NCBI RefSeq assembly: GCF_965641715.1
Contig: NZ_OZ282453.1
Source of the DNA: Escherichia coli
Lineage (GTDB): Bacteria > Pseudomonadota > Gammaproteobacteria > Enterobacterales > Enterobacteriaceae
Length of the DNA: 64,000 nt
Reading direction: 5' to 3' (one strand)
How positions within the stretch are numbered: the stretch's first letter is position 1; every line of letters begins with the position of its first letter. Positions 1 through 20,943 of this stretch are shown here, one piece after another. Below the pieces are notes generated by a model. That model was not told where the DNA came from, made no database searches, and saw nothing but the letters and a program-made list of their open reading frames with translations. Both the position numbers and the translations under genes were made by a program.

Positions 1-135
1 ACCGCGACCCTGAAAGTGGGGAAACTGTATATCGATTACGACTACACCCCCGTCCCGCCGCTGGAAAATCTGACCCTGCGCCAGCGCATCACCGATACCT
101 ATCTGGCGAACCTGTCAGACTCGGTCAACAGCTAA
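1..135 (+). CDS. P2-like phage tail sheath protein (gpFI-like), 3' end only, truncated by window edge
   Basis: Open frame from window start to TAA at about 133-135, directly upstream of the tail tube gene; assignment by P2 gene order (FI-FII), not by a recognisable motif. Confidence 0.45.
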
Positions 136-147
136 GGAGCTCTGAGC

Positions 148-666
148 ATGGCGTTACCCCGCAAACTGAAATACCTGAACATGTTCAACGATGGCCTCAG
201 CTATATGGGCGTTGTTGAATCCGTCACCCTGCCAAAACTGACCCGCAAGCTGGAGAAATATCGCGGCGGCGGAATGCCGGGGGCGGTGTCGGTTGACCTC
301 GGCCTCGATGATGATGCGCTGTCGCTTGAGTGGACGCTCGGTGGTCTGCCTGACATTGAATTGTGGGTGCAGTACGCCTCGCCGGGTGCTGACAGTGTGC
401 CGCTGCGCTTTACCAGCTCTTATCAGCGTGACGACACCGGCGCGATTTCTGCCGTCGAGGTAGTGATGCGTGGCCGTCATAAAGAATACGACGGCGGTGA
501 AAACAAGCAGGGCGAAAGCGGCACGACCAAAATGGCGACCGAGTGCGCCTATTACCAGCTCACGATTGATGGCAAAGAAGTCATCGAAATTGACGTGATC
601 AACATGGTGCTGAAAGTCGACGGTGTCGACCGTATGGCAGAGCATCGCAAGGCGATTGGCCTGTAA
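148..666 (+). CDS. P2-like phage tail tube protein (gpFII family)
   Basis: 172-aa ORF in track, same length as P2 FII; sits in conserved order FII-E-T-U-D-ogr. Confidence 0.85.
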   Translation: MALPRKLKYLNMFNDGLSYMGVVESVTLPKLTRKLEKYRGGGMPGAVSVDLGLDDDALSLEWTLGGLPDIELWVQYASPGADSVPLRFTSSYQRDDTGAISAVEVVMRGRHKEYDGGENKQGESGTTKMATECAYYQLTIDGKEVIEIDVINMVLKVDGVDRMAEHRKAIGL

Positions 667-720
667 TCCCTCAACCGGTCAGCGGGGCTGGCCGGTCACT
701 TACCCTGATGAGAAATTCGC

Positions 721-1035
721 ATGAAAAATATCAATGAAACTGCTGTTGCTGGCACTGAAAACGTCAATCCGAATGTCGTTATTTTTGACACGCCGCTGAT
801 GCGTGGTGAGCAGAAAATTGAACAGGTCACCTTAACCAAACCAAACGCGGGAACCCTGCGCGGGGTGTCGCTGGCCTCGCTGGCAAGTTCCGACGTTGAC
901 GCGCTGATTAAGGTGCTGCCGCGCATGACGTATCCGGCACTGACCGAGCACGAGCTCGCGCGTCTGGATGCGTCAGACCTGATTTCGCTGGCCGGTAAGG
1001 TGGTCGGTTTTTTGTCACCGGCTTCGGGTCGCTGA
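721..1035 (+). CDS. P2-like tail assembly chaperone (gpE family), zero-frame product
   Basis: 104-aa ORF between tail tube and tape measure genes; contains slippery T TTT TTG near its 3' end as in P2 E/E+E'. Confidence 0.75.
   Translation: MKNINETAVAGTENVNPNVVIFDTPLMRGEQKIEQVTLTKPNAGTLRGVSLASLASSDVDALIKVLPRMTYPALTEHELARLDASDLISLAGKVVGFLSPASGR
1008..1014 (+). other. Programmed -1 ribosomal frameshift site (T TTT TTG) producing E+E' fusion that would terminate near 1190
   Basis: Heptamer TTTTTTG in the E frame (codons GGT TTT TTG); the -1 frame stays open from the slip site to a TAA overlapping the tape measure start (about 1188-1190). Conserved chaperone frameshift of long-tailed phages (lambda G/GT, P2 E/E+E'). 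Confidence 0.65.
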
Positions 1036-1179
1036 CCTTCCCGGAAAAACTGTCGGTCGATGACCTGATGGCGGATATCGCGGTGATCTTCCACTGGCCG
1101 CCATCAGAGCTAAATTCCCTGAGCGTGACCGAGCTCCTGACATGGCGCGATAAGGCGCTGCAACGAAGCGGAAGCCATC

Positions 1180-3621
1180 ATGAGCAATAACGTCAGAATC
1201 GAGGTGCTGCTGAACGCAGTCGACCGGGCAAGCCGCCCGCTTAAAGCGATTCAGAACGCCAGCAAATCCCTGTCCGGTGATATCCGCAATTCACAAAAAA
1301 GCCTGCGCGAACTTAATGCGCAGGCGTCCCGTATTGACGGATTCCGCAAAGCCAGCGCACAGCTTGCCGTGACCGGTCACTCGCTTGAGAAAGCGAAACA
1401 GGAAGCGCAAGCCCTTGTCACGCAATTTAAAAACACCGAGCGCCCGACACGTGCGCAGGCGCAGGTGCTTGAATCGGCAAAGCGTGCCGCCGACGGGCTG
1501 CAGACGAAATACAACAGCCTAACTGAGTCTGTGAAACGCCAGCAACGCGAGCTCGGTGCTGTCGGGATTAATACCCGTAATCTGGCAAATGATGAGCGGG
1601 GGCTCAAATCGCGCATCAGTGAGACGACTGCGCAGCTCAATCGGCAGCGTGAGGCACTGGCGAAAGTCAGCGCACAGCAGGCAAAGTTAAGCCGGGTGAA
1701 AGCGCGGTATCAGGCCGGTAAATCGCTTGCCGGTAGCATGGCGGCGGCTGGCGCGGCCGGTGTCGGTATTGCGACAACAGGAACCATGGCCGGGGTCAAG
1801 CTGCTGACGCCGGGTTATGAATTTGCACAGAAAAACTCAAAGCTGCAGGCAGTGCTCGGTGTCGACAAACAGTCGCCTGAAATGCAGGCGCTGCGTAAAC
1901 AAGCGCGCCAGCTCGGTGACAATACCGCTGCCTCTGCCGATGATGCGGCGGGTGCGCAGATTATCATCGCGAAAAGCGGCGGTGATGCGGCGGCCATTCA
2001 GGCGGCGACGCCGGTCACACTGAATATGGCGCTGTCCAACAAGCGCACGATGGAAGAGAACGCCGCGCTGCTGACGGGCATGAAATCCGCTTTCCAGCTC
2101 TCTAACGATAAAGTCGCGCATATTGGCGATGTTCTCTCGATGACGATGAACAAAACCGCCGCTGACTTTGACGGGATGAGCGATGCGCTGACCTATACCG
2201 CGCCGGTGGCGAAAAATGCCGGGGTGAGTATCGAAGAAACCGCCGCGATGGTGGGGGCGCTGCACGATTCTAAAATCACCGGCTCGATGGCGGGTACAGG
2301 GAGCCGTGCCGTTCTGAGTCGCCTGCAGGCGCCGACCGGTAAAGCCTACGACGCCATCAAAGAGCTCGGCATTAAAACGAGCGACAGCAAAGGCAATACG
2401 CGCCCGATATTTTCCATCCTGAAGGAAATGCAGCGCAGTTTTGAGAAAAACAATCTCGGAACGGGTCAGAAAGCCGAATACATGAAAACCATTTTCGGTG
2501 AAGAAGCCAGCTCAGCGGCCGCTGTGCTGATGGCCGCCGCATCAAACGGCAAGCTCGACCAGCTCACCGCCGCGTTTAAAGCCTCGGACGGCAAGACTGA
2601 GGAGCTGGTTAAGGTTATGCAGGATAACCTCGGCGGCGACTTTAAAGAGTTTCAGTCAGCCTATGAGGCGGTTGGCACTGACCTGTTTGATCAGCAGGAG
2701 GGCTCACTGCGTAAGCTGACGCAGACGGCCACGCAATATGTGCTCAGGCTCGACGGCTGGATCCAGAAAAATAAAGGGCTGGCGACCACCATCGGCGTGG
2801 TGGTCGGGGGTGCGCTGGCGCTGATTGGTGTAATGGGCGGGATTGGCCTTGTCGCATGGCCGGTGGTAATGGGGATTAATGCCATCATTGCGGCGGCTGG
2901 CGTGCTCGGTGTGGTTTTCAGTACGGTTGGAGGCGCGATTGTCACGGCCATTGGCGCAATCAGCCTGCCGGTGCTGGCGGTTGCCGGTGCCGTGGTGGCC
3001 GGTGCGTTGCTGATCCGTAAATACTGGGAGCCGCTCGGTGCATTTTTCTCGGGCGTGGTGGAGGGACTGAAAGCCGCCTTTGCACCGGTGGGGGACATGT
3101 TTACCCCGCTCGCGCCGGTGTTTGACGCCATCGCTGAAAAGCTGGGTGTCGTCTGCCAGTGGTTTAAAGACCTGCTTGCGCCGGTGAAAGCCACGCAGGA
3201 CACGCTCTCCAGTTGCAAAAATGTCGGCGTTACTTTTGGTCAGGCGCTGGCTGATGCGCTGATGATGCCGCTCAAGATGTTTAACAGCCTGAGCGGCAAG
3301 GTCGGCTGGCTGCTGGAGAAACTCGGCGTTATCAAAAAAGAATCCAGCGACCTCGACCAGACCGCAGCGAAAGCGAATAAGGCGTCCCCGAATGGCGGGT
3401 ATATCCCTGCGACCGCAGGTTATGGCGGGTATCAGGCGTATCAGCCGGTCACAGCGCCCGCAGGCCTGTCTTATATCGACCAGAGCAAAAGCGAATACAA
3501 CATCAACCTGCAGGGCGGAGTCGCACCGGGCAGTGACCTTGACCGCCAGCTCCGTGACGCGGTCGACAAACTTGACCGCGAGAAACGTGCGCGTCAGCGA
3601 TCCAGTATGAGACTCGACTGA
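1180..3621 (+). CDS. P2-like phage tail tape measure protein (gpT family)
   Basis: 813-aa ORF; Ala/Gln/Lys-rich N-terminal half and long Gly/Ala/Val-rich hydrophobic segment; position between E/E' and U. Confidence 0.9.
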   Translation: MSNNVRIEVLLNAVDRASRPLKAIQNASKSLSGDIRNSQKSLRELNAQASRIDGFRKASAQLAVTGHSLEKAKQEAQALVTQFKNTERPTRAQAQVLESAKRAADGLQTKYNSLTESVKRQQRELGAVGINTRNLANDERGLKSRISETTAQLNRQREALAKVSAQQAKLSRVKARYQAGKSLAGSMAAAGAAGVGIATTGTMAGVKLLTPGYEFAQKNSKLQAVLGVDKQSPEMQALRKQARQLGDNTAASADDAAGAQIIIAKSGGDAAAIQAATPVTLNMALSNKRTMEENAALLTGMKSAFQLSNDKVAHIGDVLSMTMNKTAADFDGMSDALTYTAPVAKNAGVSIEETAAMVGALHDSKITGSMAGTGSRAVLSRLQAPTGKAYDAIKELGIKTSDSKGNTRPIFSILKEMQRSFEKNNLGTGQKAEYMKTIFGEEASSAAAVLMAAASNGKLDQLTAAFKASDGKTEELVKVMQDNLGGDFKEFQSAYEAVGTDLFDQQEGSLRKLTQTATQYVLRLDGWIQKNKGLATTIGVVVGGALALIGVMGGIGLVAWPVVMGINAIIAAAGVLGVVFSTVGGAIVTAIGAISLPVLAVAGAVVAGALLIRKYWEPLGAFFSGVVEGLKAAFAPVGDMFTPLAPVFDAIAEKLGVVCQWFKDLLAPVKATQDTLSSCKNVGVTFGQALADALMMPLKMFNSLSGKVGWLLEKLGVIKKESSDLDQTAAKANKASPNGGYIPATAGYGGYQAYQPVTAPAGLSYIDQSKSEYNINLQGGVAPGSDLDRQLRDAVDKLDREKRARQRSSMRLD

Positions 3622-3634
3622 GGGAGGGATAAAA

Positions 3635-4099
3635 ATGTTAATGGGGCTGGGCTTTTTCGTGTTTGAACGGCGCACCCTGCCGCATCAGTCAATGCAGTAT
3701 TCGAAGGACTACCGCTGGGTGTCAAATGACCGTATCGGAAAACCCCCGGCTTATCAGTATCTCGGGGAGGGGGAAACCTCGCGTACCCTGTCGGGCACGC
3801 TTTACCCTGAAATCACCGGCGGGCGTCTGTCACTGATGGCCATCGAACTGATGGCCGATGAGGGGCGCGCATGGCCGCTGATTGACGGAACCGGCATGAT
3901 CCACGGGATGTATGTCATCGATAAAGTGACTCACAACCACACCGAGTTATTCAGCGACGGCGCGGCTAAAAAAATCGAGTTTAGCCTGTCGCTTAAGCGG
4001 GTGGATGAATCCCTCGCGGCCATCTACGGCGACCTGAAAACGCAGGCTGATAATCTGGTCACGTCTGCCGGTAACTGGCTCGGGGGGCTGGCGGGATGA
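3635..4099 (+). CDS. P2-like phage tail protein (gpU family)
   Basis: 154-aa ORF immediately after tape measure and overlapping gpD start by 4 nt; P2 synteny. Confidence 0.8.
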   Translation: MLMGLGFFVFERRTLPHQSMQYSKDYRWVSNDRIGKPPAYQYLGEGETSRTLSGTLYPEITGGRLSLMAIELMADEGRAWPLIDGTGMIHGMYVIDKVTHNHTELFSDGAAKKIEFSLSLKRVDESLAAIYGDLKTQADNLVTSAGNWLGGLAG

Positions 4100-5259
4100 T
4101 AACGGGAATGACTATTCAGGCCGGGGCGCGCATTGCTCCTGATTTTATGCTCACGCTCGGTGGCGCAGATATCACACAGAATTTCAGCGACCGGCTTATC
4201 GGGCTGACCATGACCGACAATCGCGGATTCGAGGCTGACCAGCTTGATATCGAGCTCGATGATACCGATGGACTGGTCGAGCTGCCGCCGCGCGGGGCAT
4301 CGCTGACCCTGTGGCTGGGCTGGCAGGGCTCGGCGCTGATTAACAAAGGGAGTTTTACGGTTGACGAAATCGAGCACCGGGGCGCGCCTGACAGGCTGAC
4401 TATCCGGGGACGCAGTGCGGATTTTCGCGGGACGCTGAACTCGCGCCGCGAGCAGTCATGGCACGACACCACGCTCGGGGTGATTGTCGAGACTATCGCG
4501 CAGCGTAACAAACTGACGGCCAGCGTGGCTGATACCCTGAAAGCTGTTGCTGTGCCGCATATTGACCAGTCTCAGGAATCCGACGCGGCGTTTTTGTCCC
4601 GACTGGCGGATCGCAACGGGGCAACGGTTTCGGTCAAGGCCGGGAAATTGTTATTCCTGAAAGCCGGTAGCGCGATGACGGCCAGTGGTAAGGCCATCCC
4701 GCAAATGACCGTCGAACGCGGCGACGGCGACCGGCATCAGTTTGCCATAGCCGACCGCGAGGCATACTCCGGCGTAACCGCTAAATGGCTGCACACCAGA
4801 GACCCGAAACCGCAAAAGCAAAAGGTGAAGCTCAAGCGCAAACCCAAAGAGCAGCACCTGCGTGCGCTGCAGCACCCGAAGGTTGCTAAAACATCGGCAA
4901 AGGCTAAAAAGAAGAAGGTGCAGGAAGCGCGGGAAGGTGAGTATATGGCCGGTGAGTCCGACAATGTTCTGGAACTCACGACCATCTACGCGACAAAGGC
5001 GCAGGCCATGCGCGCAGCTCAGGCAAAGTGGGACAGGATACAGCGTGGGGTGGCGGAGTTTTCGATCACGCTCGCCACTGGCCGCGCTGATTTATTTCCT
5101 GAAACGCCGGTGGCAGTGAAAGGCTTTAAGCGCGTTATAGACGAGCAGGCGTGGATAATCAGTCGTGTGGTACACAGCCTCAACGGGAGCGGCTTCACGA
5201 CGGGCTTAGAGCTTGAGGTTAAGGTTTCTGATGTGGAGTATGAAAGCGAGGAAGTTTAA
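4096..5259 (+). CDS. P2-like phage tail protein D (gpD family)
   Basis: 387-aa ORF (same length as P2 gpD) with Lys-rich basic stretch; followed by ogr. K-12 retains only a remnant of this gene (yegZ) at this position. Confidence 0.85.
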   Translation: MITGMTIQAGARIAPDFMLTLGGADITQNFSDRLIGLTMTDNRGFEADQLDIELDDTDGLVELPPRGASLTLWLGWQGSALINKGSFTVDEIEHRGAPDRLTIRGRSADFRGTLNSRREQSWHDTTLGVIVETIAQRNKLTASVADTLKAVAVPHIDQSQESDAAFLSRLADRNGATVSVKAGKLLFLKAGSAMTASGKAIPQMTVERGDGDRHQFAIADREAYSGVTAKWLHTRDPKPQKQKVKLKRKPKEQHLRALQHPKVAKTSAKAKKKKVQEAREGEYMAGESDNVLELTTIYATKAQAMRAAQAKWDRIQRGVAEFSITLATGRADLFPETPVAVKGFKRVIDEQAWIISRVVHSLNGSGFTTGLELEVKVSDVEYESEEV

Positions 5260-5339
5260 CGGTGTGTGTTGTTTATGTGTTTGTTTTATAAATAAAAATT
5301 AGTAAAATTAACACATTGAATACGCCGGAGACCCTCATC

Positions 5340-5561
5340 ATGTTTCATTGTCCGAAATGCCATCATGCCGCCCACGCCCGCACGAGTCGCTATTTTACTG
5401 ATACCACAAAAGAGCGGTATCACCAGTGCACAAACATTAACTGCAGCTGCACGTTTGTGACCACTGAAACAGTCGAGCGTTTTATCGTGTCGCCGGGGGA
5501 AGTAGTACCCGCGCCGCCGCATCCGACATCATCAGGTCAGCAACAAATTCACTGGATGTGA
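5340..5561 (+). CDS. ogr: Ogr/Delta-family zinc-finger late-gene transcription activator
   Basis: 72-aa product MFHCPKCHHAAHARTSRYF...CTNINCSCTF with Cys4 zinc-finger spacing typical of P2 Ogr; ATG at 5340 inside track ORF 5316-5561. Confidence 0.9.
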   Translation: MFHCPKCHHAAHARTSRYFTDTTKERYHQCTNINCSCTFVTTETVERFIVSPGEVVPAPPHPTSSGQQQIHWM

Positions 5562-5571
5562 CAAACGAGAA

Positions 5572-5596
5572 AGCCCCGCGAATGCGGGGCTTTTTG
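5572..5596 (+). terminator. Rho-independent terminator downstream of ogr
   Basis: GC stem AGCCCCGC / GCGGGGCT with 4-nt loop followed by TTTTT, 10 nt after the ogr stop. Confidence 0.65.
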
Positions 5597-5866
5597 CAAC
5601 TTTTAGATCAGTTATGTTAAGTACATTTCCGTCGGCAAAGTGCCAGGAGCGGGTTCTAGAGAGTGACTAACGTTAGTTATATGTGTAAAATTCCTTAAAA
5701 ATAAGAAGGATATATATCCATGACAGCAATTGCATATTGGATTAACTGAGAATCAATTGAGAAATTTTTGGGGGGCAAAAAATAAACTAGCTAATTAAAT
5801 TTTTATAAATAACGAATATAAGACTGCAAGCCATTTAACAAAAGTTTATAAATAAAGGAGTCAGTT

Positions 5867-6718
5867 TTGAACAATATCCCCATATCTACTCAATGGACTT
5901 TAGACGCTACGGGTGAAGTTGGACGCTCATCAGTAAATTCTGTTTATATGATTATATGTCCTGCGACAGGCTCGAAAGGATCTGGTTTTTTAATAGATAA
6001 TGGGTTAATAGTAACGAACGAGCATGTTATCACTGGATGCTCTACAAATCAGATTTTCGCAATTTCAGCTTATGGACAGAAGATTCCAATTTCTCAAAAA
6101 TGGATAGATTCTGATCGCGATTTAGCTGTGCTGAGACCTGCCATTACCCAGACTGGTGGGCTAAGTATTGTTAAGGATAATGATCTTAAAGTTGGTGAAT
6201 CAGTAACAACTTGGGGATACCCATTAGGATACAACGGTCCTGCACCGTTACTATCCGTTGGTTATCTAGCAGGATTTAACTCATACCAAACCGCCAAGGG
6301 ACAAAAAAAACATCTAGTGGTAAATGGGGCATTTAACTCAGGAAATTCTGGTGGAGCTCTTTTAAAAGCTTCAGATAATAAAGTAATAGGTATTGTAGTG
6401 AGTAAGCATGCTCCTATCAGTCAATACCATCAATCAGCTATTGAAGCTTTGTCTGAAAATATGAGTGGCGTCACCTATACCGCTACTAATGACGCTGGAG
6501 AAACTAAAAGTTTTGTAGAATCTCAAATTGTAGCAGAATTATTGATTCATATGAGAAGTCTAACTCAAGTTATGATTGGAGAAGCAATTGCAGCAGAGGA
6601 ATTACTTTCGATGCTTAGCGAAATTGACTTGAGTCCACCACAATCTATGTCAAGAAATGCCTTATGTCATTGCGGGAGTGGAAAACGCTTCAAAGAATGT
6701 CATGGAAAGATATCCTAG
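5867..6718 (+). CDS. Prophage cargo protein: cytoplasmic HtrA/DegP-like (S1C, trypsin-fold) serine protease domain fused to C-terminal SEC-C zinc-binding motif
   Basis: 283-aa ORF with TTG start 6 nt after an AAGGAG Shine-Dalgarno. Motifs: GSGFLI...TNEHV (His about aa 53), DLAVL (Asp about aa 85), GNSGGAL (Ser about aa 161), as in the DegP/HtrA catalytic triad. C-terminus CHCGSGKRFKECHG matches the SecA SEC-C zinc motif. No signal peptide, no PDZ domain. Visibly AT-rich relative to flanks. Confidence 0.75.
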   Translation: MNNIPISTQWTLDATGEVGRSSVNSVYMIICPATGSKGSGFLIDNGLIVTNEHVITGCSTNQIFAISAYGQKIPISQKWIDSDRDLAVLRPAITQTGGLSIVKDNDLKVGESVTTWGYPLGYNGPAPLLSVGYLAGFNSYQTAKGQKKHLVVNGAFNSGNSGGALLKASDNKVIGIVVSKHAPISQYHQSAIEALSENMSGVTYTATNDAGETKSFVESQIVAELLIHMRSLTQVMIGEAIAAEELLSMLSEIDLSPPQSMSRNALCHCGSGKRFKECHGKIS

Positions 6719-6866
6719 TAAGTACTTATATCAGTCTGATAATGGCTCTTCAAATACAAAAGACTTCACTTACTCTGCCGTCATCTCTGCTCCTCGCTTA
6801 TTGCAGACGGTCAAAAGCTTACAAGCTGTTGACTAGATGTGTTCTTACATTGTCAGTTAAAACAAA

Positions 6867-6891
6867 AGCCCCGCAAATGCGGGGCTTTTTG
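6867..6891 (+). terminator. Rho-independent terminator downstream of the cargo gene (near-identical copy of the ogr terminator)
   Basis: Stem AGCCCCGC / GCGGGGCT, loop AAAT, then TTTTT; differs from the 5572-5596 hairpin essentially by one loop base. Confidence 0.65.
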
Positions 6892-6956
6892 TATCGATGT
6901 GGTCAATGTGTGGACATTGATAGAAATAAATCCATTTATTTCAGTAAGTTACATGC

Positions 6957-6983
6957 AAAAAATAAGCCCGTGTAAGGGAGATT
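6957..6983. other. P2-type attachment site core (prophage attR), identical to the 3' end of cyaR
   Basis: Sequence AAAAAATAAGCCCGTGTAAGGGAGATT matches the 27-nt P2 att core as I recall it; lies at the junction between prophage cargo and the host cyaR gene. Confidence 0.55.
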
Positions 6984-7043
6984 ACACAGGCTAAGGAGGT
7001 GGTTCCTGGTACAGCTAGCATTTTATGGGTTATGTTTTTCAGC
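6957..7043 (-). ncRNA. cyaR: CyaR (RyeE) Hfq-dependent sRNA
   Basis: Minus-strand sequence GCUGAAAAACAUAACCCAUAAAAUGCUAGCUGUACCAGGAACCACCUCCUUAGCCUGUGUAAUCUCCCUUACACGGGCUUAUUUUUU matches CyaR from memory, including the CCUCCU anti-SD loop and terminator; a TGTGA CRP half-site lies about 40 nt upstream. Confidence 0.8.
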
Positions 7044-7127
7044 GAAGCGGATGATAACCTTAATAAATGCAGCTGTATGTGATCGGTTTCTAAGAATTTT
7101 CCATCCGGGAAAAATAATCGAAATTAA

Positions 7128-8489
7128 TCACTTACCGTGGGGGTTACGCGTGGTTTCCCCGGAGAAATTACGCATCAGCAGCGCGTAATTTAGCTCAAGA
7201 TCCTGCGGCACCGGGAGCCACACAGTATAACCATCGCCTGGTGCTATCGGCATAGCTTCGCCTTTGGCGTTTTCCATGTGCTCAAGGGTAAAGTTAATGT
7301 TGCCTTGCGGCGTCATCAGCTCAAGGCTGTCGCCAACGGAGAATTTATTTTTCACCGCTACCGCCGCGAGGTCCCCCTTGCGCTCACCGGTAAACTCACC
7401 AACAAACTGCTGGCGGTCAGAAACCGAATAACCGTATTCGTAGTTCTGATAATCGTCGTGAGTATGACGACGCAGGAAACCTTCGGTATAGCCACGATGC
7501 GCCAGACCTTCCAGAGTTTCTAGCAGGCTGGTATCGAACGGTTTGCCCGCAGCGGCATCATCGATAGCTTTGCGGTAAACCTGTGCGGTGCGTGCGCAAT
7601 AGTAGAAAGATTTAGTACGGCCTTCGATTTTCAGCGAATGCACGCCCATTTTGGTCAGGCGTTCTACATGGGCGATGGCGCGCAGATCTTTCGAGTTCAT
7701 GATGTAAGTGCCGTGCTCATCTTCAAACGCGGTCATATACTCGCCCGGACGCTGGGCTTCTTCGATCATAAACACTTTGTCGGTTGGCGCGCCGATACCC
7801 AGCGTCGGCTCAACATTTTGCACCGGAATCGGCTCGTACTTGTGTACGATGTTGCCAACATCATCTTCTTTCCCTTCCTGGACGTTGTACTCCCAGCGGC
7901 AGGCGTTGGTGCAGGTACCCTGGTTCGGATCGCGCTTGTTGATATAGCCAGAGAGCAGGCAGCGACCGGAGTAGGCCATGCACAGTGCGCCGTGAACGAA
8001 GATCTCGATCTCCATATCCGGCACCTGATTGCGGATCTCTTCAATCTCTTCCAGCGACAGCTCGCGAGAGAGGATCACGCGGGTCAGGCCCATTTGCTGC
8101 CAGAATTTCACCGTTGCCCAGTTTACGGCGTTAGCCTGCACCGAGAGGTGGATCGGCATTTCAGGGAAGTGCTCACGCACCAGCATAATCAGCCCTGGAT
8201 CGGACATAATCAGCGCATCCGGCCCCATTTCCACCACCGGTTTCAGGTCACGGATAAAGGTTTTCAGCTTGGCGTTGTGCGGTGCAATGTTGACCACGAC
8301 ATAAAACTTTTTCCCCAGCGCGTGGGCTTCATTGATGCCGAGCTGAAGATTTTCGTGGTTGAATTCGTTGTTGCGCACACGCAGGGAGTAACGCGGCTGG
8401 CCCGCATAAACAGCATCTGCGCCATAAGCGAAAGCGTAACGCATATTTTTCAGCGTTCCCGCCGGGGAAAGGAGTTCCGGTTTAAACAT
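7128..8489 (-). CDS. rlhA: U32-family peptidase-like protein YegQ/RlhA (23S rRNA 5-hydroxycytidine synthase)
   Basis: 453-aa ORF recognised as E. coli YegQ (MFKPELLSPAGTLKNMRYAFAYGADAVYAGQPRYSLR...); conserved position next to cyaR. Confidence 0.9.
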   Translation of the reverse strand: MFKPELLSPAGTLKNMRYAFAYGADAVYAGQPRYSLRVRNNEFNHENLQLGINEAHALGKKFYVVVNIAPHNAKLKTFIRDLKPVVEMGPDALIMSDPGLIMLVREHFPEMPIHLSVQANAVNWATVKFWQQMGLTRVILSRELSLEEIEEIRNQVPDMEIEIFVHGALCMAYSGRCLLSGYINKRDPNQGTCTNACRWEYNVQEGKEDDVGNIVHKYEPIPVQNVEPTLGIGAPTDKVFMIEEAQRPGEYMTAFEDEHGTYIMNSKDLRAIAHVERLTKMGVHSLKIEGRTKSFYYCARTAQVYRKAIDDAAAGKPFDTSLLETLEGLAHRGYTEGFLRRHTHDDYQNYEYGYSVSDRQQFVGEFTGERKGDLAAVAVKNKFSVGDSLELMTPQGNINFTLEHMENAKGEAMPIAPGDGYTVWLPVPQDLELNYALLMRNFSGETTRNPHGK

Positions 8490-8591
8490 AATTCTCTCGT
8501 TCTGATGACAGGTCAGATCCGCTTCACCTGATGAAGCGGTTAGGGGAGTGCCCCCACTTTAAGGGCGGGCATTGTAGCGCAATCGGCGGGT

Positions 8592-8888
8592 TTAGCTCCA
8601 GTGTAAATGTCTGGTGGCGTCCTGGTTTTGGTTAAGGATACGAATGACGATAATTTCCCCTGGTGATTGCAGGAAATAAATTACGTGGCGTTCAAAAGGA
8701 AGAACAAAAATACCTTCGCCTAATTCAGGTCTGGGCGTACCTATATTATTGTTACTCAGAATCTGGAGAACGTCTGAAAGATGTTCCACATATCTGTCGG
8801 CTTGTGGTTCGCCGAAATGGTGATAACTGTAATACCAGATGCCTTCTAAATCTTCATTGGCTTTTGGCATGAGTTTAATAATACGCAC
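8592..8888 (-). CDS. ParE/RelE-superfamily type II toxin (ParE-like)
   Basis: 98-aa ORF with ParE-like features (...IVIRILNQNQD...); immediately downstream of, and 1 nt from, a ParD-like antitoxin gene. Start codon uncertain (GTG at 8888 or internal ATG, Met7). Confidence 0.7.
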   Translation of the reverse strand: MRIIKLMPKANEDLEGIWYYSYHHFGEPQADRYVEHLSDVLQILSNNNIGTPRPELGEGIFVLPFERHVIYFLQSPGEIIVIRILNQNQDATRHLHWS

Positions 8889-8889
8889 A

Positions 8890-9141
8890 TTATTTCCTTA
8901 TCCCTGCTTTCACCTTCCGTAAAAACGCGTCCTTTTCCCACGGCTGAGCTTCACCACTACTCAACCCTTCTGCAAGCATGTCACGTAACGCTTGCAGGCG
9001 AGACTCTGCTTGCTTTTCTCGAAGTAAGCGCAGTGACTCACGGATCACTTCGCTTTGGGTGCGATAGTCGCCGGATTCAATTAAGGACTCGATAAATTCA
9101 CGCAACTCATCGCCGAGATCAACCGTCATCGTTCTGGCCAT
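8890..9141 (-). CDS. ParD-like antitoxin (ribbon-helix-helix, CopG family)
   Basis: 83-aa ORF MARTMTVDLGDELREFIESLIESGDYRTQSEVIRESLRLLRE..., typical ParD N-terminal RHH; upstream partner of the ParE-like gene. Confidence 0.75.
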   Translation of the reverse strand: MARTMTVDLGDELREFIESLIESGDYRTQSEVIRESLRLLREKQAESRLQALRDMLAEGLSSGEAQPWEKDAFLRKVKAGIRK

Positions 9142-9384
9142 GTTTATGCTCTCCTGTAAGTAAAAATCTTACATCAGTGTATGTCATAAACCGGATAGCG
9201 TCACGAAAAGTATTAGAAGATATTTTGGCAGATGAACATGTTCAGGAGGATAAGCATGGAGATGTTAAACAAAGAAAGCACAATGAGTATTCATCAGTGT
9301 CCACTATTTTAATGGCGCAGGTAAATAAATAAGCGTTATTTGGAAATAAAGCCGGACGCCAACAATCCACGCCCGGCATCGTAA

Positions 9385-9717
9385 TTACGTATTGTCTTTC
9401 ACCGTCTGGCTTGTGCCATTGGCTTTAACGGAGGCAATTCCGGTTTCACGAGATTGCGCGGTGGCATACATCTGGCTGGAGCCGATAATTTGATGATTGG
9501 CGGCTTTCAGATTGAAATAGAATTTGCCGTTGCTTGCCGTTTTTTTCTCATAGCGTTCTTCTTGCGGGCTGTTGCTACGCACCGACGCGATGCCCTTTTC
9601 CGCAGAGGCTTTTGAAGTATACAGCTCGCTGGTGAGGATAGTCTCACCATTGCCCGCTTTTAGCACAAACCGGAACTGATTATCACTGCTCTTAGTGAGT
9701 TCAAACCAACCAGCCAT
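9385..9717 (-). CDS. yegP: UPF0339 family protein YegP (tandem DUF1508 repeats)
   Basis: 110-aa product MAGWFELTKSSDNQFRFVLKAGNGE... with internal duplication (...KKTASNGKFYFNLKAANHQ...); ATG inside track ORF 9385-9756. Confidence 0.85.
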   Translation of the reverse strand: MAGWFELTKSSDNQFRFVLKAGNGETILTSELYTSKASAEKGIASVRSNSPQEERYEKKTASNGKFYFNLKAANHQIIGSSQMYATAQSRETGIASVKANGTSQTVKDNT

Positions 9718-9907
9718 AATGACTCCTTGATTGAAATTGCGTATCGAAAACAGCATCTAAAGGTGCTGTTTACCGATTAAAGTATGAGCGATTTTCTGGT
9801 GCCTGCTAGGGCGGAGAGATAATGTCAGTTTGCTGACCATGCGTGGGATAATGTTGCCGGATCGGGTCTGAACGCCATCTCCGGCTAACAAAGTCATGTC
9901 GCTAAAA

Positions 9908-10630
9908 CTAAACGATGCGGCAGGCGTCGGCTTCCCAGCGGTAACCAACGCCGTAAACGGCGCGGATAAATGACTGTTCGGCGTCGAGAGATTCCAGCTT
10001 GCGGCGCAGGTTTTTAATGTGGCTGTCGATGGTGCGGTCGGTTACTACGCGGTAGTCGTCATAAAGATGATTGAGCAATTGCTCGCGGGAGAACACTTTT
10101 CCTGGTTCATGAGAGAGCGTTTTCAGCAGACGAAATTCCGCAGGCGTCAGGTCAAGCATTTTACCGCGCCATGAAGCCTGAAAACGACCTTCGTCGATAA
10201 TCAACGGGCTTTCAGCATCCTGTTGCTGCAACTCACGCTGCGGTTTGCAACGGCGCAAAATGGTTTTGACACGCGCTACCACTTCCCGTGGGCTGTACGG
10301 CTTGCAGATGTAGTCATCTGCGCCAATCTCCAGCCCCAGCAGGCGGTCGATCTCTTCGATTTTTGCTGTCACCATCACGATAGGAATGTCAGAAAAACGA
10401 CGAATTTCCCGGCACAGCGTCAAGCCATCGGTGCCAGGGAGCATCAGATCCAACAGGATCAGATCCGGTGGTGTCTGGCGCACATACGGCAGTACCTGAT
10501 CGCCGTGGCTGATAAGCGTCGGCGCATAGCTCGCAGCACGCAGATAATCAATGAGCAACTGCCCCAGCTTCGGTTCATCTTCCACGATCAAAATACGCGG
10601 TGTGTTTTCGTCGATTGGTAACTCGGTCAT
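9908..10630 (-). CDS. baeR: Two-component response regulator BaeR (OmpR family)
   Basis: 240-aa ORF with receiver domain ([18 protein letters not shown]...D...LMLPGTDG) and winged-helix C-terminus; overlaps baeS stop. Confidence 0.95.
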
Positions 10631-12030
10631 ACTTCTCTCTGTAAATCCCGTTCCAGCGGTAACTCTACTGTAATGCTTACCCCGCCAAAAGGCGAATGGG
10701 CAGCAATAATGCGGCCATTATGTGCTTCAACAATGTTCAGGCAAATCGCCAACCCCAGCCCGGAACCGCCGCTGGCACGGTTGCGGGAACCTTCGGTGCG
10801 ATAAAAACGTTCAAACAATTTTTGTAGCTGATCGTCACTGACACCTGGCGCACTGTCGGCAAAGGTCAGGCGCACCGTTTTGTCGTGCTGCTCGGCAGAG
10901 ATTTTCAGGCTGCCGCCGCTGTCAGTGTAGCGCAGGCTGTTTTCCAGTAAATTATTGAACAACTGCATTAAACGGTCGCGATCGCCAAATACGGTAATAC
11001 TGTCTGGCAGGGAAAATTGCAGTTTCAGGCCACGGCTGGCGAATCGTTCGCGAAATGCGCCGCCCGCCACTTCCAGCAGTGGGATCAAATCTACCGGTGC
11101 TTTTTGATAGGCGAGAGCGCCTTCATCAGACATCGACAACTGATGAAGATCGTCAACCAGTTTGGTCAGTGTACCGACCTCCGCCTGTAAAGACGCCACC
11201 GTCTCCGGCGTGAATTTGCGCACGCCATCCTGAATGGCTTCCAGTTCACCGCGCAGCACCGCTAATGGCGTACGCAGTTCGTGAGAAATATCGGCCATAA
11301 AATCGCGCCGCATTTGCTGGTTTTTCTCCAGCGTGCTGGCGAGCTGGTTGAAGTCTTGCGCCAGTTTGCCCAGTTCATCTTCACTGGTGGGCGTTACGCG
11401 GGTAGTGAAATCGCCCGCCGCCAGTTTGTGCGTGCCGTCCACCAGCCGTTTGACCGGGGCCAAAAGACCACGCGCCAGCAGAAAGGTGGCGAGCGCCGCG
11501 AGTAACGTTGCCAGGGCGACAATCAGCCAGCTGGTTTGCCGCTGTTGTTTATCGAAATTGATATCAGTATTGCGCGTTAACCGCTCAACGGGGGAGGCGA
11601 TCACCGCGCCAACTTCCGCACCGTTGACCAGAATGGGTCGCCGTGTACCGTCAGGTGGAATCGGCGCTCGCGGACCAACCAGCACTTTGTTGTTTTGATC
11701 AACCACCCAGAACTGGGTACGCCAGCCGTGCGGTGGCATACCCGGGCCGGGTTTATCTTCCGAATTATCGTGTTCAAATGAACGCAGGATCTGAAAGACA
11801 AAGCGATCATTGTTGCGCAGGAAGCGCCAGTTACCATGCTGCGCATACTGCTCGCCAAGCGCATCACTTAACAGTTGTAATCGCTGTTCATTACCATGCT
11901 TGATGTAATCAATAAAGCCACGCTCAAAACTGATACGCACCGCCCAGTGCATACTGATCAGCAAGACAATGCAGGTGGCGAAAATCGCCAGAAACAGTTT
12001 GCCGGTAATACCGGGTCGCCAGAACTTCAT
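10627..12030 (-). CDS. baeS: Envelope-stress sensor histidine kinase BaeS
   Basis: 467-aa ORF with two TM segments, HAMP, H-box ([11 protein letters not shown]) and ATPase domain; in mdtABCD-baeSR operon. Confidence 0.95.
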
Positions 12031-13442
12031 TGCGCGCTCCTTTTTCGCCGCGAAATAGCTACATTTTGATGCGTATCGTTCGGCACTCTGGCAAAGATGA
12101 ACGCCGGAAGGGCGATGATAAACGCCATGCTAAGCCAGGTGTACATAAAGACGGTTTGTGTGGTGCCGCTGTCGACGCTGACATGCTGCGAACCAAAAAG
12201 TCCCAGCAACAGCCCGGCGATGGTGACGCCGATACTCATCGACAATTGCATAATCATCGACAGCAGACTGTTGCCGCTGCTCGCCAGATTGTCCGGGAGA
12301 TCTTTCAGCGTCAGGGTGTTCATGGAGGAGAAACGGGTCGAGTTGACCATCCCTTGTAAAAACAGGACGAACGGCAAAACGTAGTACCAGCCCAACAGAG
12401 CGGTAGTCATAAACAACAGGGTGACCAGCGACAGACCCAGCGTGGTCGCTACCAGTACCCGACGATAACCAAAGCGATTCACCACCTGTACAACAATCCG
12501 CTTCATCCCCATGCTGCCAAGCACCATCGGGATCATCATCAGTCCGGCATGAAACGGTGAGAAGCCAAGGCCAATTTGCAGGAAAACCGGCGTCATAAAG
12601 GGCAACATGCCGCTACCGATACGTCCGGCAAAGCTCCCCGCCAGGCCCAGCGAAAAGGTACGAGTGCGGAACAGTTTCAGACTGAAAAGAGCGCGGTTGT
12701 TATTTCTGGCGTGCAGCAGATAAAGCACCAGTGCCACCACACCAACTGCGACCAGGCCAGTAATCGCCAGCGGCGATAAACCTGTACCTTTACTGCCGTC
12801 CAGCGCCAGGGTTAATACCGCCATGCCAACCGCCAGCAATAAAAAGCCGGAAAGATCAAAGCGCCGCGTCTGCATGGTGTAGTTCGGCATTAACATCAAT
12901 GTGGCGATCGCACCGATAATCCCCACCGGAATGTTGATCAAAAAGATCCAGTGCCACGACGCGTACTCCACCAGCAGACCGCCGAGCGCCGGACCGAGCA
13001 GCGGACCGACCTGACCGGGTAACGTGACAAAGGTCATCGCCGCCATATATTGCTCGCGCGGTACGATTTTCATCACCGTCAATCTGCCGACCGGCACCAT
13101 CATCGCGCCGCCAACGCCCTGTAACGCGCGTGCCAGCAACAGTTCGTTCAGCGTGCCGGAAAGCGCGCAAAACAATGAACCGAGAGTAAACAGCACGATG
13201 GCGGTAAAGAAAATATTGCGCACGCCGACTTTGTCCGCCAGCCAGCCGCTGGCGGGCAGCATCACCGCCACGGTCAGTACATAAGAGACAATGACCATGT
13301 GCATATGCAACGGACTTTCCCCGAGGCTTTGCGCCATTGAGGGAAGGGCGGTGTTTACGATGGTGGTGTCCAGCGACTGCATAAAGAAGCCGAAAGCCAC
13401 AATCCACAATTGCCAGCGGGTGCTGTCGGGAAGATCTGTCAT
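12027..13442 (-). CDS. mdtD: MFS transporter MdtD
   Basis: 471-aa polytopic membrane ORF between mdtC and baeS. Confidence 0.95.
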
Positions 13443-16400
13443 TTACTCGGTTACCGTTTGTTTAGGTTTACGCGAAAAACGCAGCCGCAGACGGTCGAAA
13501 AAGAGATATACCACCGGCGTGGTATACAGCGTCAGGAGCTGACTCATCACCAGACCGCCGACAATGGTGATCCCCAAGGGTTGCCGCAGCTCCGAGCCGT
13601 CACCGCCCGACAACACCAGCGGCAGCGCGCCAAACAGCGCCGCCAGGGTAGTCATCATAATCGGGCGAAAACGCAGCAGACAGGCCTGGAAAATAGCTTC
13701 CTGCGGCGTCAGGTTACCGTGCCGTTGGGCTTCAAGCGCAAAATCGACCATCATAATGGCGTTTTTCTTCACAATGCCGATTAATAGCATGATCCCTATC
13801 ATGGCGATTAGGCTGAACGGGGCATTGAACAGCTCCAGCGCCAGCAGCGCTCCAACGCCCGCCGAGGGCAGGGTGGAGAGAATCGTCAGCGGATGTACGT
13901 AACTCTCGTAAAGGATACCCAGCACGATATACACCGTGGCGATGGCGGCGATAATCAGGATCACCTGTGAGTTCATCGTCTCCTGGAACACCTGCGCCGT
14001 GCCGGCAAAACTGCCGCGCACCGTCGAAGGCACACCAAGCTGGGTCATTGCGCGGTCGATTGCCGCACTGGCGTCCGAGAGCGATTTTCCGGTCGGCAGG
14101 TTGAACGAGATGGTCGAGGCTGCCGATAATCCCTGATGATTCACCGATAGTGGGGCATTCGCCGGTTGCCATTTAGCGAAATACGACAGCGGGATCGCTT
14201 TTCCTTCGTTATTGATTACGAACATTTTTTCCAGCGCACTGATGTCCTGGGTATAGCGCGGATCCACTTCCATCACCACTTTGTACTGGTTCATCGGCTG
14301 GTAAATGGTCGAGATTTGCCGCTGACCGAAGGCGTTATTTAACAGGCTGTTGGCGGCCTGTACGTCGATTCCCAGCCGTGCCATGGTGTCGCGATCGTAA
14401 ACCAGATTCATCTCCGCGCCGTTATCCTGCTGATCGGAGTTCACGTCCGCCAGTTCCGGTAACGTTGCCAGTTTTTTGCGGATTTTCGGCTCCCATTCGC
14501 GCAGTGCCGCCAGGTCGTCGGATAACAACGTGTACTGGTAACTGGCGTTCGACTGACGTCCGCCAACGCGAATATCCTGTACCGCCATCAGGAACAGATT
14601 CGCCCCCGGTTCTTTCGCCAGTTTCACCCGCAGACGGTCGATAATTTGCTGCGCCGTTTCGCTGCGTTCGCCGCGTGGCTTGAGGGTGATAAACATCATC
14701 CCGCTGTTCACCCGCGAACCGCCGGTAAAGCCGGTGACATTATCCACTGCCGGATCGTCACGGATAATTTTCATGAAATCCTGCAATTTTCCGCGCATCG
14801 CCTGAAACGAAATACTCTGATCCGCCTGTATCCCGCCCATCAACACGCCGGTGTCCTGCTCCGGGAAGAAGGTTTTCGGGATCGAGATATAGAGCCAGAT
14901 ATTCAAAGCAATGGTGCCAAGCAGCACCACGCCCACCAGACGGGTATGATTGAGCACCCATTTCAGTGACTTACCATAGCCTTGTTGCAGGGCTACCAAC
15001 ATGCGACCAAAACCACGCAGTCGCTTTTGCTCGCGCGGCTTGCTGGCTTTCAGCATCCAGCCACACATCATTGGCGTTAATGTCAGAGAAACCAGCAACG
15101 AAATACCAATGGCGACAGAAAGCGTCACGGCAAACTCGCGTAACAGTCGGCCCGGCAATCCGCCCATCAACAGCAGCGGCAGGAACACCGCCACCAGTGA
15201 CAGACTCATCGACAGCACCGTAAAGCCGACTTCGCGAGTACCTTGTAGCGCGGCCTGTAGTGGTTTCATCCCCGCTTCCAGATGACGGGCAATGTTTTCC
15301 AGCACCACGATGGCGTCATCCACCACGAAACCAGTAGCGATGGTGAGCGCCATTAACGACAGGTTATTGAGACTGAATCCGCACAGGTACATCGCCGCAA
15401 ACGTACCAATCAGCGAAACCGGCACCGCAACGGCGGGAATAATAGTGGCGCGACCCGAGCGCAGGAATAAAAAGACCACCAGAATCACCAGCGCCACCGA
15501 GATAATCAGCGTTTGCTCGACTTCTTCCAGCGAGGCGCGAATGGTGGGGGAGCGATCCTGAGCAATTTGCAGATCAATCGCCGCCGGAATGGTCTCCTGC
15601 AACTCCGGTAATTTTGCCCGGATGCTGTCTACCGTCTGGATAATATTGGCTTCCGGCAGTTTGCGGATCATCAGCAAAATAGCCGGTTTGGCGTTGGTCA
15701 TCCCGGCGTTGCGCACATCCTGCACTGAGTCGGTTACCGTTGCCACATCGCCCAGACGAACCGCACCACCATTGTTGTAGTGAATAATCAGCGGCTGATA
15801 TTCAGCGGCGGTTTTCAGTTCATCGTTGGTCTGGATCTGCCAGCGGTGAGTGCCATCTTCCAGCGCCCCCTGCGGTTTACGCACGTTGGCATTGCTGATG
15901 GCAGTGCGTACGTCGTCCAGCGACACGCCCTGATTAAACAGCGCCTGCGGGTTCAGCCCGACGCGCACGGCGGGCAGCGAGCTGCCGCCGACATCGACAT
16001 CACCGACGCCGTCGATTTGCGAAATCGTCGGAGCCAGCTGCGTCGAGGCGAAATCGTACAATTCACCCTGCGAATAAGTATCGGAGGTTAGCGTCAGGAT
16101 CATAATTGGCGCATCCGACGGGTTCGCTTTGCGATAAGTCGGGCGGCTGGGCATCCCACTGGGCAGCAGACTTTGTGCGGCGTTGATCGCCGCCTGCACA
16201 TCACGCGCCGCACCGTTGATATCCCGGTCAAAATCAAACTGCAAAATAATACGCGTGCTGCCGAGCGAACTGCTGGAGGTCATTTCACTGACCCCGGCAA
16301 TGCGCCCAAGTGAACGCTCCAGCGGCGTGGCAACGGAAGACGCCATTGTCTCCGGCGACGCACCGGGCAGCGAGGCGCTGACCATAATCACCGGAAAATC

Positions 16401-19500: not shown

Positions 19501-19643
19501 TCCGGCAGCGCCGAAACGGGCAGGGCGCGATAACCGATAATCCCGGCGAGTAAGATCGCCACCATCAACAGCGTGGTGGCGACAGGACGCATAATAAACA
19601 GGCGCGACGGGCCGCCTGTGCTGCTCGGGGGTAACACCTGCAT
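16521..19643 (-). CDS. mdtB: RND multidrug efflux pump subunit MdtB
   Basis: 1040-aa RND transporter. Confidence 0.95.
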
Positions 19644-20890: not shown

Positions 20891-20943
20891 CGTTAAGAGT
20901 TTCTCTTCCTGAAACGTTTCGCGGAATGATACTAGTGTAGCCA

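Follow-up and report, generated by a model that had tools for sequence, protein, structure and literature searches.

The 64-kb window of Escherichia coli DNA analyzed here opens inside a cluster of phage tail genes that ends in a late-gene activator, and this arm is separated by a low-GC insert from a phage attachment site that overlaps the small RNA gene cyaR. The genes of the phage arm are as follows:

1..135, + strand: 3' end of the FI tail sheath gene, cut by the window start (stop codon at 133-135, frame open before it)
148..666, + strand: FII tail tube gene, 172 aa (Pfam Phage_tube, 2.8e-58; 64.5% identity to P2 FII over 172/172 aa)
721..1190, + strand: E and E+E' tail assembly chaperone (E at 721-1035, Phage_TAC_7; E' at 1068-1190, Phage_P2_GpE, 5e-20)
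1180..3621, + strand: T tape measure gene, 813 aa (PhageMin_Tail, 1.3e-43; 80% identity to P2 T)
3635..4099, + strand: U tail gene, 154 aa (Pfam Phage_P2_GpU, 2.6e-39)
4096..5259, + strand: D tail/late-control gene, 387 aa (Pfam Phage_GPD, 6.2e-25; 72% identity to P2 D over 386 aa)
5340..5561, + strand: ogr, zinc-finger late-gene activator, 73 aa (Pfam Ogr_Delta, 2.2e-20; 72.6% identity to P2 Ogr)

Open reading frames and Pfam matches place these genes across window 1-5561 in the order FI end, FII, E/E', T, U, D, and ogr, which is that of bacteriophage P2 (NC_001895), and blastn aligns P2 18711-24290 collinearly with the arm at 72.5% nucleotide identity, with protein identities to the P2 counterparts of 60-80%. 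The sequence-only reading of this DNA had described the FII-E/E'-T-U-D genes and ogr as complete and P2-sized, and the lengths agree (in aa, window/P2: FII 172/172, E 104/91, T 813/815, U 154/159, D 387/387, and ogr 73/72). The ogr product also exceeds the cutoff of the NCBIfam equivalog PRK09678 (138 bits, cutoff 116). Within E, a -1 slippery heptamer, T TTT TTG, lies at 1008-1014 in the same context as in P2 (GGTCGGTTTTTTGTC), with the E' frame open from 999, and a programmed -1 frameshift yielding E+E' is predicted from this conserved site. The assignment to the P2 type stood, whereas P2 itself is not the phage in question, as the tail genes are nearer to Enterobacter phage ENT4, the best isolated relative (82%), and to 186-type phages (77%) than to P2 (72.5%). 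The arm is mosaic, with a breakpoint in T near position 3250: against the closest RefSeq prophage, 136 mismatches fall in 1-3250 and 5 in 3251-6750. We place the probability that a P2-type (Peduoviridae) prophage at the classic cyaR site has its right arm in window 1-6983 at about 90%.

The far end of the arm is defined by three features:

6894..6956, + strand: P arm of attP (window 6860-6983 aligns to P2 24259-24382, annotated 'Int P arm', 'IHF', and 'attP core')
6957..6983, + strand: attR core (27/27 identical to the attP core annotated in NC_001895 at 24356-24382)
6957..7043, - strand: cyaR sRNA gene, intact (87/87 identical to the annotated K-12 cyaR, exact string match)

Two integrase arm-site repeats in the P arm, TGTGGTCA at 6898-6905 and TGTGGACA at 6909-6916, both fit the published arm-site consensus tgTGGaCa (PMC3448106), and an IHF-site homologue occupies 6922-6955. 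The layout of terminator, P arm with tgTGGaCa repeats, IHF site, and 27-nt core is that of the P2 attP, and P2 likewise has the cyaR 3' end as its attB. The core gave a single zero-mismatch match in the 64-kb window, with no second copy there, as expected, and 0 of 100 shuffles matched even at three mismatches. It is also the final 27 nt of the K-12 cyaR gene, comprising the terminator loop, the 3' half-stem, and the U tract, and Rfam RF00112 (CyaR/RyeE) matches 6960-7045 on the minus strand with 100.7 bits (gathering score 47) over model positions 1-85 of 85. Both the proposed coincidence of the P2 att core with the terminator-proximal 27 nt of cyaR, an exact match at 6957-6983, and the proposed integration of a P2-like arm at the cyaR 3' end, where the 27/27 core adjoins a P arm homologous to that of P2, were borne out. 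Integration is best explained by site-specific recombination, catalyzed by a P2-type tyrosine integrase, between the phage attP and a bacterial attB formed by the last 27 nt of cyaR, the classical P2 site ('locI'). The resulting attR reads ogr, terminator, cargo, terminator, P arm, core, and cyaR body, with phage DNA directly 3' of cyaR, and because the core is common to phage and host, the full 87-nt cyaR and its terminator are retained.

The annotation of K-12 bears out the statement that this strain has only the ogrK/yegZ remnant at cyaR, as ogrK, the yegZ pseudogene, and a 'cryptic prophage PR-X' feature are all that it records there. The yegZ pseudogene is a fragment of a D homologue, which K-12-type RefSeq records call 'phage late control D family protein', and K-12 keeps only the final 0.6 kb of such an element, namely D', ogrK, the P arm, and the core. 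The site is empty in E. coli C, in which yegR, a single core/cyaR, and yegQ follow one another with no phage gene between them. Of 5426 complete E. coli genomes, 4562 match a synthetic empty-site query without a break, and in 1129 (~21% of complete E. coli genomes) ogr is contiguous with the P arm and cyaR. The cyaR insertion site and the K-12 remnant are known biology, already in the literature: 'cyaR RNA' is catalogued as a P2-type insertion site, 'ogr-D'' as the K-12 remnant, and Wphi2 of E. coli W and P2*B of E. coli B as P2-type prophages at cyaR (PMC3032704 Table 2). By their catalogue entries, the last two share the site and the phage type with the present element, and these entries make no mention of the protease cargo described below (PMC3032704).

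Between ogr and the P arm lie four further features:

5570..5596, no strand assigned: terminator hairpin copy 1, the ogr/F-operon terminator, AAAGCCCCGCGAATGCGGGGCTTTTTG (terminator scan; aligns to the annotated P2 terminator 24265-24288)
5597..6864, + strand: inserted cargo (moron), ~1.27 kb, 37% GC (gap in the P2 alignment between window 5595 and 6860)
5867..6718, + strand: HtrA-like (S1C) serine protease gene, 283 aa (TTG start 5 nt after AAGGAG)
6865..6891, no strand assigned: terminator hairpin copy 2, AAAGCCCCGCAAATGCGGGGCTTTTTG (26/27 identity with the first copy; the P2 terminator, from 24259 on, aligns here as well)

The first reading of the window overlooked this insert, by which ogr and the att site are held 1.27 kb apart with one gene between them. 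P2, by comparison, has ~70 nt at the same place, and in the cargo-less relative T-HYM1 one terminator is followed directly by the P arm. The GC content of the insert is 0.37 versus 0.57 for the phage arm. A low-GC cassette of ~1.27 kb has entered at the ogr terminator, duplicating the hairpin, and comprises its own upstream region and one gene, whose product is a cytoplasmic serine protease of HtrA type bearing a SEC-C zinc motif. The insert is best taken for a putative lysogen-expressed moron; a sigma-70 promoter scan upstream of the cargo gene gave no signal above chance. The insert is carried by 34 of the 5426 complete E. coli genomes at 99.8-99.9% identity, all of them among the 37 genomes that match the whole prophage arm together with yegQ.

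P2-like phages carry morons, or lysogenic-conversion cassettes, at the tin/old, Z/fun, and orf30 loci, and antiviral hotspots in such phages have been described (PMC9122126, Rousset et al., 2022; bioRxiv 10.64898/2026.02.27.708500). The present insert resembles P2-like morons in being a low-GC, self-contained, single-gene insert flanked by terminators. It differs from them in position, as the relevant passages of those reports do not list the ogr-P arm interval as a hotspot (PMC9122126; bioRxiv 10.64898/2026.02.27.708500), and in its rarity in E. coli, where 34 genomes carry an ogr-attP insert versus 1129 with ogr directly beside cyaR. The ogr-attP interval was also considered as a variable E. 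coli hotspot, and this was rejected: it is contiguous in those 1129 genomes, and the sole cargo found in it is the present one.

The cargo protein matches Pfam Trypsin_2 (1e-19) and, at its C terminus, SEC-C (3.6e-07). Its catalytic residues H53, D85, and S161, within the motifs TNEHV, RDLA, and GNSGG, are invariant in 32 homologues, and its AlphaFold model (pLDDT 82) finds its best PDB folds in Deg1, DegP, DegQ, and DegS. It shares with HtrA/DegP/DegQ/DegS (MEROPS S1C) the chymotrypsin-fold protease domain, its best PDB matches in sequence and fold being DegQ, Deg1, DegP, and DegS. Unlike that family, it has neither a PDZ domain (no Pfam match) nor a signal peptide (on direct reading, the N terminus MNNIPISTQWTLDATGEV contains no hydrophobic leader), and its ~100 C-terminal residues, with the SEC-C zinc motif, have no solved relative by sequence. 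All NCBIfam HtrA/Deg equivalogs score it far below their cutoffs (e.g., 54.9 bits vs. 470). A tblastn search of isolated phages matched none that encode it, and homologues at 80-90% identity form single-gene cargo of unrelated temperate phages and also sit in a cassette of a Vibrio superintegron.

It is rather likely that this protease is either inert cargo or serves some purpose other than defence, such as general proteolysis or the processing of phage or host proteins, and does not protect the lysogen or exclude other phages. No model in PADLOC-DB 2.0 matches it over its full length; it is only the protease domain that resembles domains of RT-Protease_XI, PDC-M35A, LmuA, and HamA, and the SEC-C tail gives weak matches to E2 models. 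PADLOC, PHROGs, and NCBIfam assigned it to no named defence family and gave domain-level matches only, no literature was found that links a SEC-C plus trypsin protein or an integron-borne trypsin protein to anti-phage defence, and the promoter scan at chance level points the same way. Against a passive role stand the invariant catalytic triad, the recurrence of 80-90% identical homologues in unrelated temperate phages and the Vibrio superintegron, a Klebsiella homologue that lies three genes away from a TIR-domain gene with umuDC between, and the presence at other cargo sites of the same prophage of Tin and of an ABC-ATPase candidate system. On these grounds we put forward, as a tentative proposal that may well prove wrong, that the protease could be an unrecognised single-gene form of lysogen protection, acting by superinfection exclusion or abortive infection. 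The gene would then travel in a ~1.1-kb cassette shared by P2-like, lambdoid or P22-like, and Mu-like-baseplate myoviruses and chromosomal integrons, and P2-like phages would have, in the ogr-attP interval, an extra cargo site that is seldom used.

With FI cut by the window start, the completeness of the prophage and its attL were read from sister contigs. Window 1-13621 is matched at 100% identity by Logan contig L004, in which FI occupies 7763-8956 and position 8822 corresponds to window position 1; the contig runs on upstream for 8.8 kb through lysis, baseplate, fibre, and sheath genes, all intact. The NCBI assembly GCA_036956245.1 differs from the window by 1 base across the same 13.6 kb (99.99%), while the best match to the window among the 5426 complete E. 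coli genomes is 98.1%. In these identical or near-identical contigs the complete prophage measures 31,961 bp from int to ogr. The gene order in GCA_036956245.1 is int, C, cox, B, A, a two-gene cargo, Q, P, O, N, M, L, X, and the lysis genes, followed by R, S, a tin-like gene, V, W, J, I, H, G, FI, and FII to ogr. Each essential P2 gene has a full-length homologue there, including those for head, packaging, lysis, replication, the C/Cox switch, and the integrase, and no IS element or truncation was seen in the prophage as it was walked upstream on this assembly. Identity between its integrase and P2 Int is 83.6%, the P2 cos site is matched only at 16/19, and the C/Cox switch and the A/B replication genes are of P2 type; P2 itself is not SOS-inducible. 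The prophage departs from P2 in its holin and endolysin, which are not homologous to P2 Y and K, in having neither old nor fun(Z), and in carrying tin at the orf30 position.

The attL copy of the 27-nt core, whose existence the sequence-only reading had anticipated, is located in the sister contig at a distance of 31,961 bp upstream, in the yegR-int interval, and agrees with the core at 25/27 positions (AAAAAATAAGCCCGTGTAAGGGCGTTT), the mismatches falling at core positions 23 and 25, on the int side. The same junction recurs in a RefSeq relative (L001), which likewise has the complete prophage, and in two IMG/VR prophage calls with differing chromosomal flank alleles. Collinearity between the reconstructed attP and the attP-int region of P2 extends over 491/497 nt, and blastn against the phage collection matched the reconstruction only to P2-type phages, at ~75% identity. 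An exact-pattern scan of IMG/VR gave no free phage with this attP, both matches being prophage attL junctions, and because no free attP was found, we infer rather than observe a phage-side core variant of 25/27, in which the attP core probably reads ...GGGCGTTT. As both attL mismatches are on the int side, the crossover would lie to their left, that is, left of core position 23, and at most ~22 nt of the cyaR 3' end would be physically phage DNA. The earlier proposal that integration regenerates the cyaR 3' end from phage sequence is thereby kept in substance, with cyaR intact at attR and the phage P arm 3' of the core, and narrowed in extent to this stretch of ~22 nt or less.

These contigs also bear on whether the arm could belong to a defective remnant, larger than that of K-12 and cut short or interrupted before the window start. 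That start falls within FI, and nothing before it is seen directly; remnants are frequent at the site, those of the K-12 ogrK/yegZ type being among the 1129 genomes with ogr beside cyaR, and one relative (H45) has an IS150 insertion in this region. The 100% identical contig, in contrast, adds 8.8 kb of intact genes, no essential P2 gene is missing or shortened in the near-identical assembly, where int and attL are also present, and 74 indexed blocks of the assembly collection contain the integrase-yegR junction, which makes a defective remnant improbable. The gene content of the sister genomes supports a complete prophage, in agreement with the suggestion that a complete P2-like prophage extends beyond the window start: the run from int to ogr is uninterrupted, and upstream extension in GCA_036956245.1 recovered the capsid, lysis, and int genes.

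That the protease gene and its flanks are chromosomal, with the phage truly ending at the first terminator (~5597), is hardly credible despite the fall in GC from 0.57 to 0.37 near that point and the lack of isolated phage genomes encoding the protein, since both the core and the P arm, Int and IHF sites included, follow on the right-hand side of the gene (6894-6983), which places the gene inside the att-bounded element, and since the gene is absent from the locus in the empty E. coli C and in the cargo-less lysogen T-HYM1, with all 34 insert genomes among the 37 that match the prophage arm and yegQ.

Little is at stake in the finding of a P2-type prophage at this locus, which is a textbook case of a tyrosine-integrase phage at the 3' end of an sRNA gene: the phage carries a copy of the end of the gene, and the gene therefore survives integration. 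Its value is that of a clean annotation, with an exact attR, P arm, and core, an intact cyaR, and a predicted phage-derived 3' end of ~22 nt. The cargo gene is the only part that may lead to anything new. As a conserved, PDZ-less cytoplasmic protease of HtrA type with an intact catalytic triad, recurring as the single gene of such cargo in several phage families and in integron cassettes, it would be a reasonable candidate for a phage panel.

The left end of the window carries the right arm of the prophage, which ends in an attR core lying inside the 3′ end of cyaR, and its features are listed below.

Features of the prophage arm and its attachment site (window coordinates)
1-135, plus strand: 3′-terminal 44 codons of FI, the sheath gene (open reading frame call)
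148-666, plus strand: FII (open reading frame; Pfam family above cutoff)
721-1035, plus strand: E (open reading frame; Pfam family above cutoff)
1068-1190 as annotated, frame open from 999, plus strand: E′ frame (open reading frame; Pfam family above cutoff)
1180-3621, plus strand: T (open reading frame; Pfam family above cutoff)
3635-4099, plus strand: U (open reading frame; Pfam family above cutoff)
4096-5259, plus strand: D (open reading frame; Pfam family above cutoff)
5340-5561, plus strand: ogr (open reading frame and Pfam; passes the NCBIfam equivalog PRK09678)
5867-6718, plus strand: sole open reading frame of the cargo insert (TTG start, 5 nt after AAGGAG; 283 aa)
6960-7045, minus strand: Rfam CyaR (100.7 bits against a gathering score of 47)

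Each gene from FII to ogr matches its corresponding Pfam family well over the cutoff, and the arm is collinear with P2 (NC_001895) 18711-24290 at 72.5% nucleotide identity. The encoded proteins are 60-80% identical to those of the P2 tail arm, with window/P2 lengths of 172/172 (FII), 813/815 (T), 154/159 (U), 387/387 (D) and 73/72 aa (Ogr), and the reading of these genes from sequence alone as full length and P2-sized is thus borne out. The -1 frameshift heptamer of P2, T TTT TTG, is kept with its context at 1008-1014. The closest isolated phage is Enterobacter phage ENT4 (82%), followed by 186-type phages (~77%), a ranking by which, judged on sequence, the prophage is of P2 type and not P2 itself. 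Against the closest RefSeq prophage (NZ_AP021944.1), 136 mismatches fall in window 1-3250 (~4% divergent) and just 5 in 3251-6750, the right side up to attR being ~99.9% identical; this clustering indicates a recombination (mosaic) breakpoint at ~3250, inside gene T. One close relative of the prophage, NZ_CP028578.2 (H45), has an IS150 inserted in its counterpart of this arm.

The K-12 cyaR (87 nt) has an exact copy at 6957-7043. The attP core of the P2 record (24356-24382) occurs once in the window, at 6957-6983, without mismatch, and none of 100 shuffles matched it even with three mismatches permitted. In K-12 the 27-nt core forms the last 27 nt of cyaR, so that the proposed coincidence of the core with the terminator-proximal end of the gene holds at all 27 positions; on the CyaR RNA it spans the terminator loop, the 3′ half-stem and the U tract. 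The adjoining window 6860-6956 aligns to P2 24259-24355, comprising the terminator, the Int P arm and the IHF site, and the P arm holds two arm repeats, TGTGGTCA and TGTGGACA, both of which fit the arm-site consensus tgTGGaCa (PMC3448106). At the same site K-12 is annotated with only ogrK, the yegZ pseudogene and a feature named "cryptic prophage PR-X", in agreement with the remnant described earlier. Beyond cyaR, a ParE/RelE toxin and ParD antitoxin pair is encoded at 8592-9141 on the minus strand between yegQ and yegP; not all relatives have the pair, and K-12 and the related lysogen T-HYM1 lack it.

The sequence-only reading also proposed that a complete P2-like prophage extends beyond the window start, and contigs (near-)identical to the window support this. 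The best match among 5426 complete RefSeq E. coli genomes reaches 98.1%; exact-protein look-up with T returned a Logan contig (L004), which agrees with window 1-13621 at every base, and the assembly GCA_036956245.1, which differs over that interval by one base, the two contigs differing from each other at 3 of 22,442 positions. Upstream of the window the latter, the sister contig, has from left to right yegS, yegR and attL; int, C, cox, orf78, B, orf80, orf83 and A, with a gene resembling orf91 after them; the genes for an ABC-ATPase and its 370-aa partner; Q, P, O, N, M, L and X, then the lysis genes (holin/lysozyme, lysB and lysC); R and S, then a minus-strand tin-like gene; and V, W, J, I, H, G and FI, which lead into the window genes. 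By tblastn, all essential genes of P2 have full-length matches in this prophage, whose Int is 83.6% identical to that of P2, and Y, K, lysA, old, fun and orf30 of P2 gave no match. In contrast to P2, its lysis genes are non-homologous replacements. The capsid, lysis and integrase genes and the attL core sought by upstream extension were all found, and the sister contig has neither truncation or IS disruption of the upstream genes nor loss of the second core. The exact integrase protein is indexed in 74 assembly-collection blocks and adjoins yegR at every place shown.

On the sister contig the core recurs 31,961 bp upstream of its attR copy and ~80 nt from the stop codon of int, with 25 of 27 positions matching (AAAAAATAAGCCCGTGTAAGGGCGTTT). 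Both mismatches, core positions 23 and 25, fall toward int (P′). A RefSeq relative and two IMG/VR prophage calls, the latter with different alleles in the flank next to yegR, have the same attL, and the two mismatches stay with the phage from one host background to another. A reconstructed attP (P arm, core and P′) is collinear with the attP-int region of P2 over 491 of 497 nt. Because the core is common to phage and host, attR re-creates a complete cyaR. In the simplest reading the phage attP core would be ...GGGCGTTT and strand exchange would occur to the left of core position 23. The earlier proposal that integration regenerates the cyaR 3′ end from phage sequence then stands as to the complete gene at attR, and is narrowed to at most the last ~22 nt as physically phage DNA. 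Searches for a free attP sequence of this phage found none. At attL the core can pair with a 5′ half-stem contributed by P′, giving a cyaR-terminator-like hairpin followed by U6 downstream of int, which is probably the int terminator; the whole segment (L010 3455-3540, from GCA_036956245.1) has a minimum free energy of -26.8 kcal/mol, whereas P2 attP folds differently (-14.2 kcal/mol).

Placement of the prophage at cyaR is correct, ordinary and documented. In the E. coli W genome paper (PMC3032704), "cyaR RNA" appears in a table as a site of P2-type insertion, with Wphi2 there in strain W, P2*B in strain B and "ogr-D'" in K-12, so the finding is already known in kind. A synthetic empty site (yegR flank, core and cyaR) aligns contiguously in 4562 of the 5426 genomes, small remnants counted in, and is split by a large insert in the other ~16%; a synthetic cargo-less junction (ogr, terminator, P arm, core and cyaR) is contiguous in 1129 genomes (21%), K-12-type remnants counted in. 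The site is empty in E. coli C. "Empty" attB sites too have a degraded P-arm-like stretch directly 3′ of cyaR (ATCGATGTGGTCAATGGAAGACGG...; P2 P arm for comparison, ATGTGGTCAATGTGTGGAC), seen in E. coli C (L021 1440-1500), in the attL flank of the sister contig and in K-12 (L003 ~7800-7830), where the stretch and a partial core abut the D′ (yegZ) fragment; it resembles a scar left by a far older P2-like integration. Some genomes (H127-H131 and H133; e.g., ST131 strain 751) have ~170 nt extra at the yegR-cyaR site, the 827-nt empty-site query spanning 997 nt in two aligned pieces, which may be a small remnant or repeat.

The sequence-only reading of the arm, sound as to genes and core, missed a cargo insert between ogr and attP. 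The P2 alignment stops at window 5595 and restarts at 6860, and the cargo-less T-HYM1 has ogr, one terminator, P arm, core and cyaR with nothing between. The terminator hairpin occurs twice in the window (5570-5596 and 6865-6891; 26 of 27 positions identical), a duplication suggesting that insertion or recombination took place at the ogr terminator; both copies look bidirectional. The bracketed cargo of ~1.27 kb has 37% GC, against 57% in the phage arm, and is rare, present in 34 of the 5426 genomes at 99.8-99.9% identity. By tblastn it had no match in 50,697 phage records, and a literature search found nothing describing the protease or the ogr-attP cargo position. The sister prophage holds cargo elsewhere: a Tin homologue (PADLOC, 5.6e-93; L004 1860-2612) at the S-V (orf30) position rather than the tin/old position of P2, and, next to the portal gene, the ABC-ATPase pair, a candidate two-gene system (L010 10001-12672) whose ATPase resembles NsnB, PDC-M55A and AriA.

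The cargo protein combines a Trypsin_2 domain (1e-19) with a C-terminal SEC-C motif (3.6e-07), and only its closest homologues, most of them gammaproteobacterial, share the SEC-C tail. Residues H53, D85 and S161, together with a C-terminal LTQVMIGEA segment, do not vary across 32 aligned homologues. Its AlphaFold model (pLDDT 82) matches the protease domains of Deg1, DegP, DegQ, DegS and MarP; unlike the HtrA family, it has neither a PDZ domain nor a signal peptide, and all NCBIfam HtrA scores fall far under their cutoffs. PADLOC assigned no known defence family, with domain-level matches only, to the protease domains of RT-Protease_XI, PDC-M35A, LmuA and HamA, and none of the >900 homologues has an informative name. 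Homologues at 72-90% identity are single-gene cargo in a lambdoid Klebsiella prophage, where the gene is terminal and adjoins umuDC, past which lies a TIR-domain gene; in a Yersinia prophage whose portal is of P22 type, where it separates the lysis module from the replication module; in a myovirus prophage that has a Mu-like baseplate, again terminal and past the tail-fibre chaperone; and in superintegron cassette arrays of Vibrio parahaemolyticus. Nucleotide homology to the Klebsiella and Mu-like contexts (window 5645-6757 and 5789-6811, ~86%) covers the gene and ~80-220 nt upstream, which points to a mobile cassette of ~1.1 kb. A lysogen-protecting function for this HtrA-like protease would be plausible, though less likely than not, and this moron is the one lead from the prophage arm worth an experiment.
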